Both the position numbers and the translations under genes were made by a program. The notes beneath the pieces were generated by a model. The model had not been told where the DNA came from, ran no database searches, and was given only the letters and a program-made list of their open reading frames with translations. Below are positions 11,700 to 28,654 of a stretch of DNA of 32,955 nt, piece after piece. The stretch is from a bacterium (GTDB lineage Bacteria > Zhuqueibacterota > Zhuqueibacteria > Oceanimicrobiales > Oceanimicrobiaceae), in assembly GCA_046757165.1 (NCBI GenBank), contig JBHHXT010000038.1, positions 1 to 32,955 of the forward strand, given 5' to 3'. How positions within the stretch are numbered: position 1 is the first letter of the stretch; each line of letters starts with the position of its first letter.

Positions 11700-12683
11700 C
11701 TAGTACAGCCGTGCCACCTCGTCTTCATAGCCATTGTAGAGCAACGTCGGAATCCGCTCGTCGGTGTCGATAACTCGCTCGCTCGCCTGAGACCAGCGCG
11801 GATGGGGCACATTGGGATTGACGTTCGACGTAAAGCCGTACTCATTAGGTGTCAGGTCGTTCCAGAAAGTACGTGGCTGCTTCTCGACAAACTCAATTCT
11901 GACAATGGATTTGATCGATTTGTAGCCGTACTTCCAGGGCACGATCAGGCGTATGGGCGCGCCGTGTTGTTTGGGGAGGGCATGGCCATAAATGCCGGTC
12001 GCCAGCAAGGTCAGTTCATTTGCTGCTTCGGCCATCGTCAGCCCTTCGTAGTAGGGCCAGGGATACCAGCTCTGCGTCCGCTGGCCGACGGCCTGCTCGG
12101 GACGGTTGAACGAGACCATGCGGACATACTTTGCGCTCGCAAACGGTTGCACTTCGTCGATCAGCTTCTTGAACGGAAAACCCGTCCAGGGCACGACCAT
12201 AGACCACGCCTCTACGCAACGAAAACGATAAACACGCTCCTGCAGCGGAAACTTCTTGACCAGGTCGTCGAGATCAAAGGTGCGTTTGTTGTGCACCAGG
12301 CCGGTCACTTCAACCTTCCAGGGCTCGATCTCCAGCTCTTGTGCCAGCTTCCACACCCGGGCTTTGTCTGTGGTGAATTCGTAAAAGTTGTTGTAAGCAG
12401 CCGCTGTTGCCTCGGCACTGAGCGGGCGATCGACGGTATACCGGGCATTGCGCTCAGCGGGGTAGGGCGGCAGGGGCTTCGGGATCGTGCCTTTGAAGTC
12501 GCCAGGATACGTTTCGACTCTCGCTTCGGATGTGCCTTTAAAGCACCCCATCAGAAGTCCGAAGGCGCCCAGACCCGAAAAGCCCAATTCTTTGATGAAG
12601 CTTCTCCGGTTCAGGAACACCTTCTCCGGCGTGGCCGTGCTTTCCAGGTGCTGCCAACTTTTCCTTATTTTGATATTGGCCAT
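11700..12683 (-). CDS. msrP: protein-methionine-sulfoxide reductase catalytic subunit MsrP (YedY, molybdoenzyme)
   Basis: Tat motif NRRSFIK; YNNFYEF, RFRCVEAWSMVVPW, PYYEGL, QHGAPIRLIVPWKYGYKSIKSI, HPRWSQASER; RBS AAGGAGG. Confidence 0.95.
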   Translation of the reverse strand: MANIKIRKSWQHLESTATPEKVFLNRRSFIKELGFSGLGAFGLLMGCFKGTSEARVETYPGDFKGTIPKPLPPYPAERNARYTVDRPLSAEATAAAYNNFYEFTTDKARVWKLAQELEIEPWKVEVTGLVHNKRTFDLDDLVKKFPLQERVYRFRCVEAWSMVVPWTGFPFKKLIDEVQPFASAKYVRMVSFNRPEQAVGQRTQSWYPWPYYEGLTMAEAANELTLLATGIYGHALPKQHGAPIRLIVPWKYGYKSIKSIVRIEFVEKQPRTFWNDLTPNEYGFTSNVNPNVPHPRWSQASERVIDTDERIPTLLYNGYEDEVARLY

Positions 12684-24653: not shown

Positions 24654-26831
24654 TCAAACCATCGCGCTCTCGAACCCGGAGTCTTTCACGAACAAACACG
24701 ATGATTTCGTTTGCTCCGAGGCGCTGCGAACGAAGGCAAAGGGGACGGTATCGCGCAGGCCAAAAATGTTGATATCTGCGCGCGGCGCCCTTTTGAGATT
24801 CTCCTCGAACTTGCCAATCAGAACATGGAAGTCAGTCATGGACGGAAGGCGCGCCTGGTCGCTCAACCGGGTCAGGAAGCTGTAGAGCCGCTTTTCATCC
24901 GCTGGCTCCTCGGTCGAGGTGATGAGGTTGATGCTGCCGTCCCAATTGATTTGCAACTGCAGGGCGATCAGCAGGGCAAGCTGCCAGTTGGGACTCTTGT
25001 CGCGCAGCCAGAGATTGACCGTCTTCTGCATGCCAAATGCGACGCGCGGATGCTGGCGCAGGATAATCGTGCCCATCTGGTTGGTGACTGCGTGCTGCAT
25101 GAGCTGGCTGATAGTTTCGTCCTTCTTCCTGTTGCTCCCCAGGGTCAGAAACAAGATGTTTGGCCGGAAGGCGCCACCTTTCAAGGTCTGAATGACCAGC
25201 TTTGCGCCGTGCAGGAATTCGCTGTCCTCGATGACCGTGGCGTTCACCAGGATCTCTTCCTCCTTGATAGGCAGCAGCAGATCTTGCAAGTCCTTTTCGG
25301 TCTCCTCCACCTTCTCGTTCTTGACGGAAAAGGCAAACAGGCTGCCGGAGGGGTAGGTGATGTTGCGAATAAAGAGCAGCGGCCCGGACCAGATTTTCGG
25401 TTCGTCGATGGGCAGCAGCAGGTCGGGTTTCCAGGAAACACGGTGGCGCGGAAATTTCATCGCCATGCGGGAGGCGCGCTCGGCCAATACCATGAACAGG
25501 CCGCCGCGAATGTCCCCCCACTTGCTCTGCTGTAGGCCGCGACGTTCGAGCCAGAAGTAGAGCGCGACGACAGTGGTCAACGCGACCAGGCTGAAGGCGG
25601 CGTTGATGAGAAACATGATGAAAATACACCCGACTGCACCCAGGAGTGGAGTGAAGCGCGGAATTCGGAAGGTGGGCCGGAAGCTGATGATGCGCATGCT
25701 CTGCTGAATGAAGACCACCAGGTTGAGTATCCCGTAGGTGATCAAAAAGAACATCGTGATCAACGATGCCAGATAGTTGAGGTTGCCAAGCAGAAGCGCC
25801 AGAACGATGATGGCCCCCGTGAAGATGATGGCATTGCGTGGTTCGTTGCTTGCTGTTTTTTGTGCAAAGAGGTGGGCGAAGGGGACGGTTTTCTGTTCGG
25901 CCAGCGCTTGCAGGATTCGTGGCGCGCCCAGCATCGCGCCCAGTGCAGAAGAAAGGGTGGCGCCGAGGATGCCGGCCACCACCGCCGAACCCCATCGCGC
26001 TTTGTCGACCATCACCATCTGGTTGCTGCGCAGCTCCTCGGACGTGGCCACATTCGCCAGCACATAGGCGATAGCGATGTAGATGAGCATGGTCAGGAAA
26101 ATGGAAAAAAGCGTGCCGAACGGAATCGACTTGCGCGGGTCCTTCAAATCGCCCGACAGGTTGGCGCCGGCCATGATGCCGGTCACCGCCGGGAAAAAGA
26201 CCGCAAACACCTGCCAGAAGCTGGCGTCCTGAAAGTTGCCGTTTATCGAGAATTCGGGCACGGCCTCCACAGGCGTCAAGAAAAACGATAGCAGCGAAAG
26301 TCCAATGATCGTCATGATCACATACTGAATTCGGATGGCAAACTGCGCACTGACATAGGAAACCACAAGCAGGCCGATCCAGGCCAGCATCGAGATGAGC
26401 AGCGGCGGAAAGCCCGGCAAGATAAGGCGCATGCCTTCGGTGAAACCGATGATGTAGAGCGCCGCGGAGAGCGTCTGAGAAATATAGAATGGGATGCCAA
26501 TGCTTCCGCCCGCCTCGAGGCCGAGGGAACGCGAGATGATCGAATAGGCGCCGCCCGCACCGATGCGGATGTTGGTGGTGATCGAGGCCATGGAAAAACC
26601 CGTGCAGATGGTAACCAGTTTGGCCAGCAGAATGATGATCACCGCGCCCCAGAAGCCGGCATTCCCCACGACCCAACCGAGACGCAAGAACATAATCACG
26701 CCGAGAATGGTCAGGACGTCCGGCGTAATGACACCGCTAAAGGTGCCGAATTTTTTGGCAGCGGCTTGCCGCCGGAAGAAGGGCCGCGCCTTCATCCGCA
26801 AGGCACGATAAATGACGGGCAGAGGTCTCAT
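24654..26831 (-). CDS. cation-chloride cotransporter (SLC12/CCC-like, APC superfamily permease)
   Basis: KKFGTFSGV..LTILGVIMFLRLGWVVG, GGAYSIISRSLG.E.GGSIG, FFPAVTGIMAGANLSGDLKDP, FRPTF, long soluble C-terminal domain. Start 26831 or 26795. Confidence 0.92.
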   Translation of the reverse strand: MRPLPVIYRALRMKARPFFRRQAAAKKFGTFSGVITPDVLTILGVIMFLRLGWVVGNAGFWGAVIIILLAKLVTICTGFSMASITTNIRIGAGGAYSIISRSLGLEAGGSIGIPFYISQTLSAALYIIGFTEGMRLILPGFPPLLISMLAWIGLLVVSYVSAQFAIRIQYVIMTIIGLSLLSFFLTPVEAVPEFSINGNFQDASFWQVFAVFFPAVTGIMAGANLSGDLKDPRKSIPFGTLFSIFLTMLIYIAIAYVLANVATSEELRSNQMVMVDKARWGSAVVAGILGATLSSALGAMLGAPRILQALAEQKTVPFAHLFAQKTASNEPRNAIIFTGAIIVLALLLGNLNYLASLITMFFLITYGILNLVVFIQQSMRIISFRPTFRIPRFTPLLGAVGCIFIMFLINAAFSLVALTTVVALYFWLERRGLQQSKWGDIRGGLFMVLAERASRMAMKFPRHRVSWKPDLLLPIDEPKIWSGPLLFIRNITYPSGSLFAFSVKNEKVEETEKDLQDLLLPIKEEEILVNATVIEDSEFLHGAKLVIQTLKGGAFRPNILFLTLGSNRKKDETISQLMQHAVTNQMGTIILRQHPRVAFGMQKTVNLWLRDKSPNWQLALLIALQLQINWDGSINLITSTEEPADEKRLYSFLTRLSDQARLPSMTDFHVLIGKFEENLKRAPRADINIFGLRDTVPFAFVRSASEQTKSSCLFVKDSGFESAMV

Positions 26832-26948
26832 GGTTTCACTTAACGGATGTAAGAAATGATGACGGGACGCTAAAAATACCAAATAAATGTCTCATTGTCA
26901 AGGTTTTAGCTTGACAAACTTGGCAGAATTACACATCTTTGAGCGACG

Positions 26949-28226
26949 ATGAAAAAGCCAAACTACGATTCTGTCGCCTGGTTTCCGATTCTCGCGGTCG
27001 GCCTGTCGATGGTCGCGTTCACGATGATCAAGACGGGCCGCGATGCCGTGTTTTTCCAGCAAGACGGGCTGCGGAAGCTCCCTCTCGCCTACATTTGGAT
27101 TGCCATCGCCGCGGTACCGGCCGCCATCATTCACCTGCGCGCGTTTGACCGCTGGGGCGCTCGCAAGACGCGCACGGCGCTGTTTTACCTCACGGCGGCT
27201 GTCTTTCTGCTCTTCGTCCCGGTGACCGCTCCCGAGCACCGCTTCTCGATGATCTTCCTGTTCATCATCGTTCCCACCCTGTTTGCTGCCGTGTTCGCCG
27301 GCGCCTGGCTGCTGGCAGGAGACCTGCTGGAGGGTGCCAGGCAAAAAGAGCTCGGCAAAGTCTACAGCCGCATCGGCGCTGCTTCGATGATGGGTGGTAT
27401 CCTGGGCGGGCTGCTTTCCAAGTGGCTGTCGCTTGCTTTAGAGCCGCGGTATTTGCTGGCCGGGGGCGCTTTTTTTCTGGTGCTGGTCGGTTTGCTGGTG
27501 ACGAAAGCGCATCGCGATTATCCGGCGGAAAACTACGCTGGATTCGAGGCAGAGATCGAGCGAAAGGCCGAAAGCTTCGGGGCAAAAAAGTCACAATTGC
27601 TCAAACAACGCTATGTGCAGATTCTGGTCGGCATCAGCACGATGGCGACGATAGCGGCCCTGTATATCGATTTCCAGTTTTACGCCACCGCCACCTTCAC
27701 CGGCAACAACAACGCACAATTCTTCGCAAATTTCTATATCATCCTGAACCTTGCTTCACTCGCGGTGCAACTGATTGTCGCGCCCAGGCTGCAATCGAAG
27801 CTGGGCGTGGCCGGAGCGTTGCTTTTGCTCCCGTACGCCCTGCTCGGTGGCGTCGGCATCTTCAGTGCCTGGACCATCGTGCAGGCGCGCACGATCATGA
27901 AAGTGACCGAAGGCGGGCTGAAATCCTCGATTCACCGTTCGATGTGGGAGCAAGTCTACTTGCCCATCGACCGGAAGCTCCGCGATGTGGCGAAAACCGT
28001 GGTGGATGGCATGGTCGCGCGCGTGGCTGAAGGCATCGGCTCCCTTTTCCTCTTCGTGTGGCTCGCTCTGGAAAGCCGGCCGCTCGAGGCCCTCGACTTC
28101 AACTGGATCTCGTGGGTCATCTTTGCCCTGATTGTTGGCTGGATTGCACTGACGCGCTATCTGGGCAGGCTCGGATGCTCGGACATCGAACCGGTGGAAG
28201 GGTTCATCCGCTTGCCGGACGGGTGA
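26949..28226 (+). CDS. TLC/Npt1-Npt2-type (ATP/ADP antiporter-like) MFS transporter; candidate selenoprotein extending to TAG at 28265
   Basis: About 12 hydrophobic segments; KTGRDAVFF; 'LKSSIHRSMWEQVYLPI...AKTVVDGMVAR' family-like motifs; ends at a TGA followed by a SECIS-like hairpin. Confidence 0.8.
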   Translation: MKKPNYDSVAWFPILAVGLSMVAFTMIKTGRDAVFFQQDGLRKLPLAYIWIAIAAVPAAIIHLRAFDRWGARKTRTALFYLTAAVFLLFVPVTAPEHRFSMIFLFIIVPTLFAAVFAGAWLLAGDLLEGARQKELGKVYSRIGAASMMGGILGGLLSKWLSLALEPRYLLAGGAFFLVLVGLLVTKAHRDYPAENYAGFEAEIERKAESFGAKKSQLLKQRYVQILVGISTMATIAALYIDFQFYATATFTGNNNAQFFANFYIILNLASLAVQLIVAPRLQSKLGVAGALLLLPYALLGGVGIFSAWTIVQARTIMKVTEGGLKSSIHRSMWEQVYLPIDRKLRDVAKTVVDGMVARVAEGIGSLFLFVWLALESRPLEALDFNWISWVIFALIVGWIALTRYLGRLGCSDIEPVEGFIRLPDG

Positions 28227-28265
28227 CAGACCGTCACCGCCCTCGGGAAGGGAAAACGGCGATAG
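28224..28265 (+). promoter_or_regulatory. candidate bacterial SECIS element after an in-frame UGA
   Basis: TGA-cagacc-GTCACCG-CCCT-cggga-AGGG-aaaa-CGGCGAT. The apical loop begins 17 nt after UGA with G in loop position 2. Confidence 0.55.
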
Positions 28266-28509
28266 GCCGGGTGAGACATTTTGGTCGGATCACCGGCGCT
28301 GCCGGCTTACGAAACGGCTGCGTCAATTTCCGCACGTGTCTGGTTCGCTGGTATCTTCTCCTATCCCTGGATTGTCTTTTAATGTCTTCTGTGAAAAAAG
28401 GGTGGCTTTGCTGAAAGAAGCAGCTTTAGACTTGATGGCAGAGATATGGGACTGCGCTTATAAGACATGGGCATTACCGTAGAACTGTGTGACAAAGCCG
28501 AGACGGTTT

Positions 28510-28654
28510 TGACGCTGAAAGCGTCATACAACGCAGCCCAGGGGTGCTGCATCCGCGGCACCCCTGGGTCATCCGGGCAATACCCACCTGAACCCCGAAC
28601 GGGGTTCCACAAAGGGGACCACGTGCGCTTCAGCATGTTTGACCCGGTTGGGGA
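28510..28654. repeat. REP/REPIN-like multi-hairpin element
   Basis: tgacgct-gaa-agcgtca; cccaggggtgctgc-atcc-gcggcacccctggg (14-bp stem); gaacccc-gaac-ggggttc; degenerate partner gacccggttgggga. Confidence 0.65.

Follow-up and report, generated by a model that had tools for sequence, protein, structure and literature searches.

We describe a transporter gene whose in-frame UGA codon very likely encodes selenocysteine (Sec), so that the gene encodes a selenoprotein. It lies on a 32,955-nucleotide stretch of DNA that we refer to as the window. If the UGA at 28224–28226 (+) is read as Sec426, the full coding sequence spans 26949–28265 (+) and specifies a 438-aa transporter of the NTT/TLC-fold MFS type with 12 predicted transmembrane helices. 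An earlier note on this DNA had proposed the Sec reading, which is now supported by Cys-aligned homologues, conservation beyond the UGA, a hairpin in the UGA-containing orthologues, and the sel genes of the host; none of the results that the note had listed as contradicting Sec was observed.

The family as a whole may be the first MFS selenoprotein family: a secondary transporter gated by a Sec tail, found in many uncultured phyla, with Sec as the majority and possibly ancestral form and, in some lineages, reset by a neighboring Sec flavoprotein reductase. We hold this composite picture with slightly less than even confidence.

Reading Frame and Genomic Setting

The open reading frame at 26949–28226 (+) contains 425 codons for amino acids and terminates in the TGA at 28224–28226. 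Beyond it, the frame continues for 12 further sense codons to the TAG at 28263–28265, giving the same tail that the earlier note had written. Contigs of sequencing run X4 span the UGA codon and list no alternative letter there, making an assembly error less likely; X4 is not itself marked as a possible source but comes from the study to which the possible source runs belong (labeled as a hydrothermal vent metagenome).

The gene is divergent from a prokaryotic cation–chloride cotransporter gene (24654–26882, −) across a 66 bp gap and has no partner downstream; this divergent cotransporter was found again only at L004, in a genome of the same family. Promoter and terminator signals did not exceed chance in a scan that marked a single sigma-70-like site, located on the minus strand (26901–26873), and Rfam returned a single chance-level match outside the transporter gene. 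A palindromic element at 28500–28650, REP-like by appearance, is repeated across many further contigs from runs X1 and X4 and reaches a depth of up to 380 versus 23. The ORF at 11–586 (−), which we take to resemble a REP-associated transposase, has no Pfam match at 1e-7. About 14 kb from the transporter gene, 11700–12683 (−) encodes a molybdopterin oxidoreductase (PF00174, MsrP-like), and PF00174 also adjoins Cys-form transporters.

Conservation of the UGA Site and the Tail

A protein search returned 91 matches to the window protein, 89 of which were counted after setting aside the window's own entry and one 677-aa protein. Of these relatives, 67 stop exactly one residue before the aligned site, 17 have Cys at the site, and 5 are fragments; the codon itself is unseen in such database proteins, and TGA is inferred from the truncation. 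At the level of DNA, in a set of 92 loci, the aligned site is TGA in 23 (a count that includes the window and three duplicates) and Cys in 65, with two loci cut by contig ends and two encoding long outgroup proteins. TAA or TAG, which the earlier note had named as evidence against Sec, occupies the site in 0 of the 92 loci. All 23 TGA loci continue for exactly 12 codons and then reach a stop that varies (10 TAA, 9 TAG, and 4 TGA).

The phylum of an Acidobacteriota genome contributed ten further loci, drawn from 9 of its 401 genomes. Eight have TGA (one repeats L003) and two have Cys, with tails of 11–26 codons and identities down to approximately 28%. In the phylum of genome G170, 1 of 301 genomes contained a match. 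After duplicates were dropped, 26 distinct TGA loci remained.

More distant proteins show the same pattern. A profile search recovered 39 additional proteins, 33 ending at the site and 6 carrying Cys (6 of the 39 were assigned by eye). Among the best 150 representatives of 50% clusters, 17 exceed 600 aa. The remaining 133 comprise 64 that stop at the site (the pattern gave 65, one of them falsely), 42 with Cys (20 by eye), two that end at or near the site, 24 fragments, and P0367, a 171-aa fragment that is the sole case among the 133 with a different residue at the site.

Conservation extends past the UGA. In alignment A3, the site and G433 are invariant in 79 of 79 tail-bearing rows (18 TGA read as Cys and 61 true Cys), and the invariant tail element places Sec or Cys in a proline-aspartate-x-[U/C]-x6-glycine frame. 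Cys-aligned homologues and conserved residues after the UGA had both been named in advance as support for Sec, and both are found. A FastTree tree restricted to the membrane portion (103 rows and 392 columns, without proteins shorter than 390 aa) divides the Cys forms into five groups, of which three nest within truncated or TGA forms. The nesting suggests repeated Sec-to-Cys change within the transporter family, in a tree whose root is unreliable and whose outgroup branches are long.

A SECIS-like Hairpin Downstream of the UGA

The upper stem-loop of a SECIS-like element lies at 28240–28252 (+), where a 4 bp core (CCCU/AGGG) closes a 5-nt loop (CGGGA, 28244–28248) with G at loop position 2. 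The loop begins 17 nt after the UGA, as first described, and the pair probabilities of the stem are 0.70–0.76. This geometry agrees with the bacterial SECIS consensus described in PMC13188914. The lower stem of the hairpin as originally drawn (28233–28263, +) fared less well than the conserved upper part: it contains one A·C mismatch and is paired in 53.1% of cells. With this stem, the whole hairpin folds at −9.8 kcal/mol, compared with −4.5 kcal/mol for the upper stem alone, and the lower-stem fold is the minimum-energy structure only for a fragment of the UGA plus 39 nt, with other pairings replacing it in longer contexts. The window hairpin taken alone is no better than chance, as 35 of 200 shuffles of a 52-nt piece fold as well and comparison with synonymous shuffles gives p = 0.39. 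The evidence from the hairpin therefore rests on its conservation across relatives.

Over the 26 distinct TGA loci, 87.8% of the cells of a 6-pair stem are paired (slid controls, 33–61%), and four of the six pairs show compensatory changes on both sides, a result matched by 0 of 500 shuffles, although the stem was picked after the alignment columns had been seen and the relatedness of the loci inflates the test. The hairpin that the earlier note had expected in UGA orthologues is thus conserved with covariation. We also devised a simplified SECIS rule and used it on tails and ORF ends. Seventeen of 19 distinct TGA tails satisfy this rule (4.2 expected from synonymous-codon shuffles), as do 4 of 55 Cys tails (1.4 expected). 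The mean folding z is −1.65 for TGA tails versus 0.00 for Cys tails, and the leucine codon within the stem is CTC in 21 of 26 TGA forms versus 11 of 56 Cys forms. These comparisons point to a conserved hairpin that is specific to the TGA forms and mostly lacking in the Cys forms.

It is highly improbable, in our judgment, that the UGA is an ordinary stop and that the codons and hairpin behind it are relics or arose by chance. All database entries do end at the UGA, the window's own hairpin is not significantly stable, and among long frames of the host genome about 5% of ordinary TGA ends satisfy the hairpin rule (80 of 1521; TAG, 45 of 862; TAA, 39 of 845). An ordinary stop, however, would sit poorly with TGA at all 26 distinct loci ahead of a next stop that varies, with a tail conserved at approximately 28% body identity, with Cys aligned in the other forms, and with a hairpin specific to the TGA forms. 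The conserved TGA/Cys site, the conserved tail, and the covarying hairpin effectively refute this explanation.

Selenocysteine Machinery of the Hosts

The window genome, which is 99.98% complete, carries selA, selB, selD, and tRNA-Sec, the machinery for which the earlier note had recommended a search. Two selD matches exceed the cut-off (C171:910–1833 and C43:29007–29678); one of the two falls within a stop-free open frame of 757 codons, whereas the other has its own TGA and lies directly behind selB. ARAGORN predicted two tRNA-SeC genes of 68 and 99 nt, the shorter of which may be spurious.

selB is present in 15 of 15 genomes carrying a TGA form, an association that is weaker than it looks because selB is common in the phylum anyway (120 of 167 genomes). 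It is also present in G554, the one genome with Cys forms tested. selA was found in 9 of 10 TGA-form genomes tested and was not detected in G167, for which no completeness is given. SelB would almost certainly recognize the hairpin and insert Sec426.

Fold and Relation to NTT Proteins

Pfam detected weak MFS_1 and TLC matches (PF03219, 20.2 bits versus a cut-off of 21), and the sole NCBIfam match was TIGR00769, at 20.3 bits versus a cut-off of 387.2. Two AlphaFold2 (AF2) models have 12 helices and pLDDT values of 86.3 and 90.3. Foldseek placed NTT1 proteins at ranks 1–4 among solved structures; the structural match to AtNTT1 has Z = 37.2 and an rmsd of 2.9 over 406 residues (LacY, Z = 28.6) at a sequence identity to NTT1 of 13–15%. 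On the strength of these models, we predict an NTT-fold transporter of the NTT/TLC-like MFS branch, in agreement with the TLC/Npt-type assignment originally made.

Residue correspondences to AtNTT1 use a numbering offset of 84 that we inferred from three consistent residue matches. Glu361 (28029–28031, +) aligns with the ATP-binding Lys527 of AtNTT1 and is Glu in 122 of 125 rows. E385 of AtNTT1 aligns with D241, where Asp or Glu occurs in 125 of 125 rows, and E245 aligns, bridged through P0092, with P109, which is invariant in 125 of 125. K28 and R31 are conserved, and R31 may correspond to K155 of AtNTT1; the tool alignments stop short of AtNTT1 helix 1. Four charged residues are reported as important in AtNTT1 (PMC4256464). 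According to the same source, K527 matters for triphosphates and not for diphosphates. A K527E mutation abolishes ATP binding by AtNTT1 (PMC3306366). By alignment, the ATP-binding lysine of NTTs is probably lost in the window protein, and since Glu361 takes the place of K527, ATP/ADP exchange is unlikely.

Three more NTT-like genes are present in the host genome (contigs C273, C24, and C128); of these, the single-domain paralogue on C273 lacks a Sec tail and retains Lys at the position equivalent to K527. In two genomes, a further TLC-like transporter gene (L119:8235–9602 and L122:5767–7161) adjoins the Sec transporter. The closest relatives outside the family are long NTT-HEAT fusions (best E = 3.3e-54), and HEAT_2 was detected in 5 of 5 long relatives tested. 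The window protein has no HEAT match in Pfam and ends 30 residues after helix 12, which bears out the earlier observation that it lacks the HEAT extension of many free-living Npt homologues.

The C-Terminal Tail

The predicted cytoplasmic tail comprises residues 409–438 (28173–28262, +). With loop boundaries assigned manually, Lys and Arg number 33 in the termini and even loops versus 1 in the odd loops, a distribution that places the tail in the cytoplasm. A first AF2 model, computed mostly from truncated alignment rows, gave the tail a pLDDT below 50; with tails in the alignment, the value rose to 62–77 and a helix appeared at 427–432. As read from pLDDT only, this suggests that the tail docks on the transporter body.

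Cys410 (28176–28178, +) is a candidate partner of Sec426 at an offset of −16, and these two are the only Cys/Sec residues in the window protein, whose transmembrane body is without Cys. The proposed C-terminal Cys···Sec pair is common but not universal. Of 67 truncated homologues, 54 have a second Cys within 22 residues upstream, and in 49 it stands precisely at −16. This Cys is missing in 13 and is not a family invariant: it is absent from L006, L111–L116, and most distant members. Because both some close and most distant members lack the upstream Cys, an intramolecular Se–S bond cannot be general. The tail exists in natural Sec, UxC, CxC, and single-Cys variants. CxC is found in 11 of 17 Cys forms, in three separate clades, and in the large Cys clade the tail contains three Cys residues.

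Gene Neighborhoods

We compared 20 distinct Sec loci with usable flanks; for the earlier loci, selected ORFs were scanned. A thiol-redox gene lies within approximately 5 kb at 5 of these 20: a CoA-disulfide reductase–rhodanese gene separated by 5 bp from the transporter ORF that follows it (L038/L042), class-I flavoprotein reductases (L119 and L120), and AhpD-like genes (L121 and L122). Among the ORFs scanned, no redox gene was detected in the other 15, the window's own neighborhood included, and the scanned neighborhoods show no conserved operon for Sec forms. The 6.09 Mb host genome has such reductases on 4–5 contigs, so that a chance occurrence is roughly 1% per 10 kb, with kin among the loci not independent. 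The window genome has no match to two AhpD-like queries.

The 65 Cys loci come mostly from one lineage and, as close kin, do not provide independent neighbors. Their surroundings include a GH63/MGH1-like hydrolase (27 loci), cytochrome b (28), an MsrP-like molybdoenzyme (24), and a flavoprotein reductase (12). At L046:2462–3802 (+), TGA takes the place of the second Cys codon of the CxxxxC center in a flavoprotein resembling glutathione reductase and lipoamide dehydrogenase. This TGA-bearing CxxxxU reductase occurs in nine loci (L046, L049, L051, L059, L078, L079, L087, L094, and L098), usually directly upstream of the Cys-form transporter, and a 6 bp hairpin with a G in the loop follows in 6 of 6 folded loci. 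The best 120 database relatives listed all start after the UGA, and two are labeled Candidatus Binatia. It is not among the 119 families in Table 1 of PMC13188914. A search of the window genome yielded no CxxxxU reductase: of its four matches, the three whose motif could be read carry CxxxxC.

At L124, a Cys-form transporter is lined up with genes for an ArsM-like methyltransferase and a radical SAM protein and with a DUF3179 gene (1649–2587, −) that is split by an in-frame TGA; DUF3179 is a listed selenoprotein family.

Possible Function of the Tail

We give an even chance to the reading that the Sec/Cys tail is a cytoplasmic redox-sensitive switch that gates the transport of a cargo which, judging from the residue comparisons, is probably not ATP. 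A redox or metal switch had also been suggested in the earlier note as what the Cys···Sec pair could be. The motif after Sec would dock on the cytoplasmic face of the transporter. Upon oxidation, the selenol would form a selenenylsulfide with Cys410 where that residue is present, or alternatively a mixed adduct with a thiol or electrophile of the cell; this would alter docking and thereby how fast the cargo is transported, and the oxidized tail would be reset by one of the cell's disulfide reductases. In the closest relatives outside the family, the position of the tail is held by a HEAT-repeat domain, to which the tail could represent a minimal alternative. Removing the last 41 residues of AtNTT1 raises its activity more than 10-fold (PMC3306366), so a regulatory tail has precedent in the NTT fold. 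We favor a gating tail over its rivals on account of the position of the tail, the AtNTT1 precedent, the thiol-free membrane part, and the redox neighbors.

The tail might instead serve to capture a substrate, acting in the cytoplasm as a ligand for a metalloid or soft metal (Hg, As(III), or Cu) that it either hands to the cavity for export or senses, a role that we consider unlikely. The extra thiols of the Cys forms (CxC in 11 of 17, three tail Cys residues in the large clade) would suit such a ligand, and the known Sec-bearing transporters in PMC13188914 are mostly tied to metal resistance. MerA-like reductases also lie near several loci, but these fall below the MerA cut-off, and although the Cys paralogue at L124 sits beside ArsM-like, radical SAM, and DUF3179 genes, no mer, ars, or cop operon recurs among the scanned neighbors. 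Metal capture must further accommodate a transmembrane body that in the window protein has no Cys, invariant cavity residues that include many Lys and Arg, and a single Sec or Cys in many members.

Alternatively, Sec could take part in moving a sulfur or selenium solute or a low-molecular-weight thiol or disulfide, for instance through a transient selenosulfide, by analogy with the Sec-containing YeeE/YedE listed in the selenoprotein table of PMC13188914. The CoA-disulfide reductase–rhodanese gene 5 bp upstream at L038/L042 and the glutathione-reductase-like neighbors in the Cys clade speak for this relay; we nevertheless judge it improbable, given a Sec located on a soluble tail 18 residues past the last helix, outside the membrane path, and the lack of recurring sulfur-assimilation genes among the scanned neighbors. 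It also appears quite improbable that the protein is an NTT-type carrier of a nucleotide or cofactor (ADP, NMP, NAD, or ATP) to which a Sec regulatory tail has been added. Its closest solved structures are NTT1 proteins, the acidic residue at E385 is matched in every row, and because K527 matters for triphosphates and not for diphosphates (PMC4256464), non-triphosphate nucleotides are conceivable as cargo. Set against these points are Glu at K527 and an invariant Pro at E245, a score of 20 versus 387 bits for TIGR00769 at 13–15% identity to NTT1, hosts with large genomes, and one uncharacterized-type NTT that failed to move nucleotides, as described in PMC5381601.

With Sec at this site, Sec chemistry would extend to secondary transporters, and the family would provide a compact test of selenium gating transport. 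It would also offer a handle on NTT-like proteins of free-living bacteria, with a tiny, mutable tail where HEAT is usual. The UGA lies just 13 codons from the end, so the protein proposed by gene callers looks complete and the error is invisible; other near-terminal Sec residues have probably been missed by gene callers in the same way.

Comparison with Known Systems

Bacterial selenoproteins are mostly soluble oxidoreductases. A 2026 inventory lists 119 prokaryotic selenoprotein families (PMC13188914, Table 1), and no MFS or NTT domain appears among the 119 in that table, through which we also compared the families of Haft and Tolstoy 2025. None of the NCBIfam selenoprotein models matched the 11 proteins scanned. 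No such protein appears in the text passages and four supplements of deep-Sep (PMC12013277) that we consulted or in the consulted portions of SelCysML (PMC13745706), and the consulted text of BSepDB (PMC13326102) contains no transporter term, with a supplementary family table that could bear on novelty. The combination of an NTT with a Sec tail is not among the architectures named in the consulted part of PMC5381601. A literature search, with most subscription journals and U-bearing records outside its scope, returned nothing on a Sec-tailed NTT family. It is therefore well supported that, within this literature, the Sec-tailed NTT-like family is undescribed and constitutes both a new selenoprotein family and a new NTT-like architecture; the earlier note likewise had not recognized it as a characterized selenoprotein family.

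The predicted Sec-bearing transporters in Table 1 of PMC13188914 include SO_0444 Cu/Zn efflux (UxC), YeeE/YedE (GUxSG), SaoP/SaoB/SaoX, a mercuric transport protein, and an E1–E2 ATPase. Like the window family, these are membrane transport proteins with UGA-encoded Sec and Cys orthologues. Unlike it, none is listed under an MFS or NTT domain and their motifs are different; no NCBIfam match connects them to the window family.

With the NTT/TLC/AAA translocases (AtNTT1, 9j3m/9j3l/9j3j; Chlamydia pneumoniae NTT1, 9j3n/9j3o; PF03219 and TIGR00769), the window family shares the 12-helix MFS fold and an acidic residue at the E385 position, and with AtNTT1 it also shares a C-terminal tail, which in AtNTT1 itself limits activity (PMC3306366). 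It differs in an identity of 13–15% with scores below the family cut-offs, in having Glu at K527 and Pro at E245, in the Sec/Cys tail motif, and in its large-genome hosts. The NTT-HEAT and NTT-HEAT-cNBD fusions of free-living bacteria (Major, Embley and Williams 2017, PMC5381601) have R31, D241, and E334 in common with the window family, whereas P109, W333, and E361 are specific to the latter, in which a 30-residue Sec tail occupies the position of the HEAT domain of approximately 500 residues.
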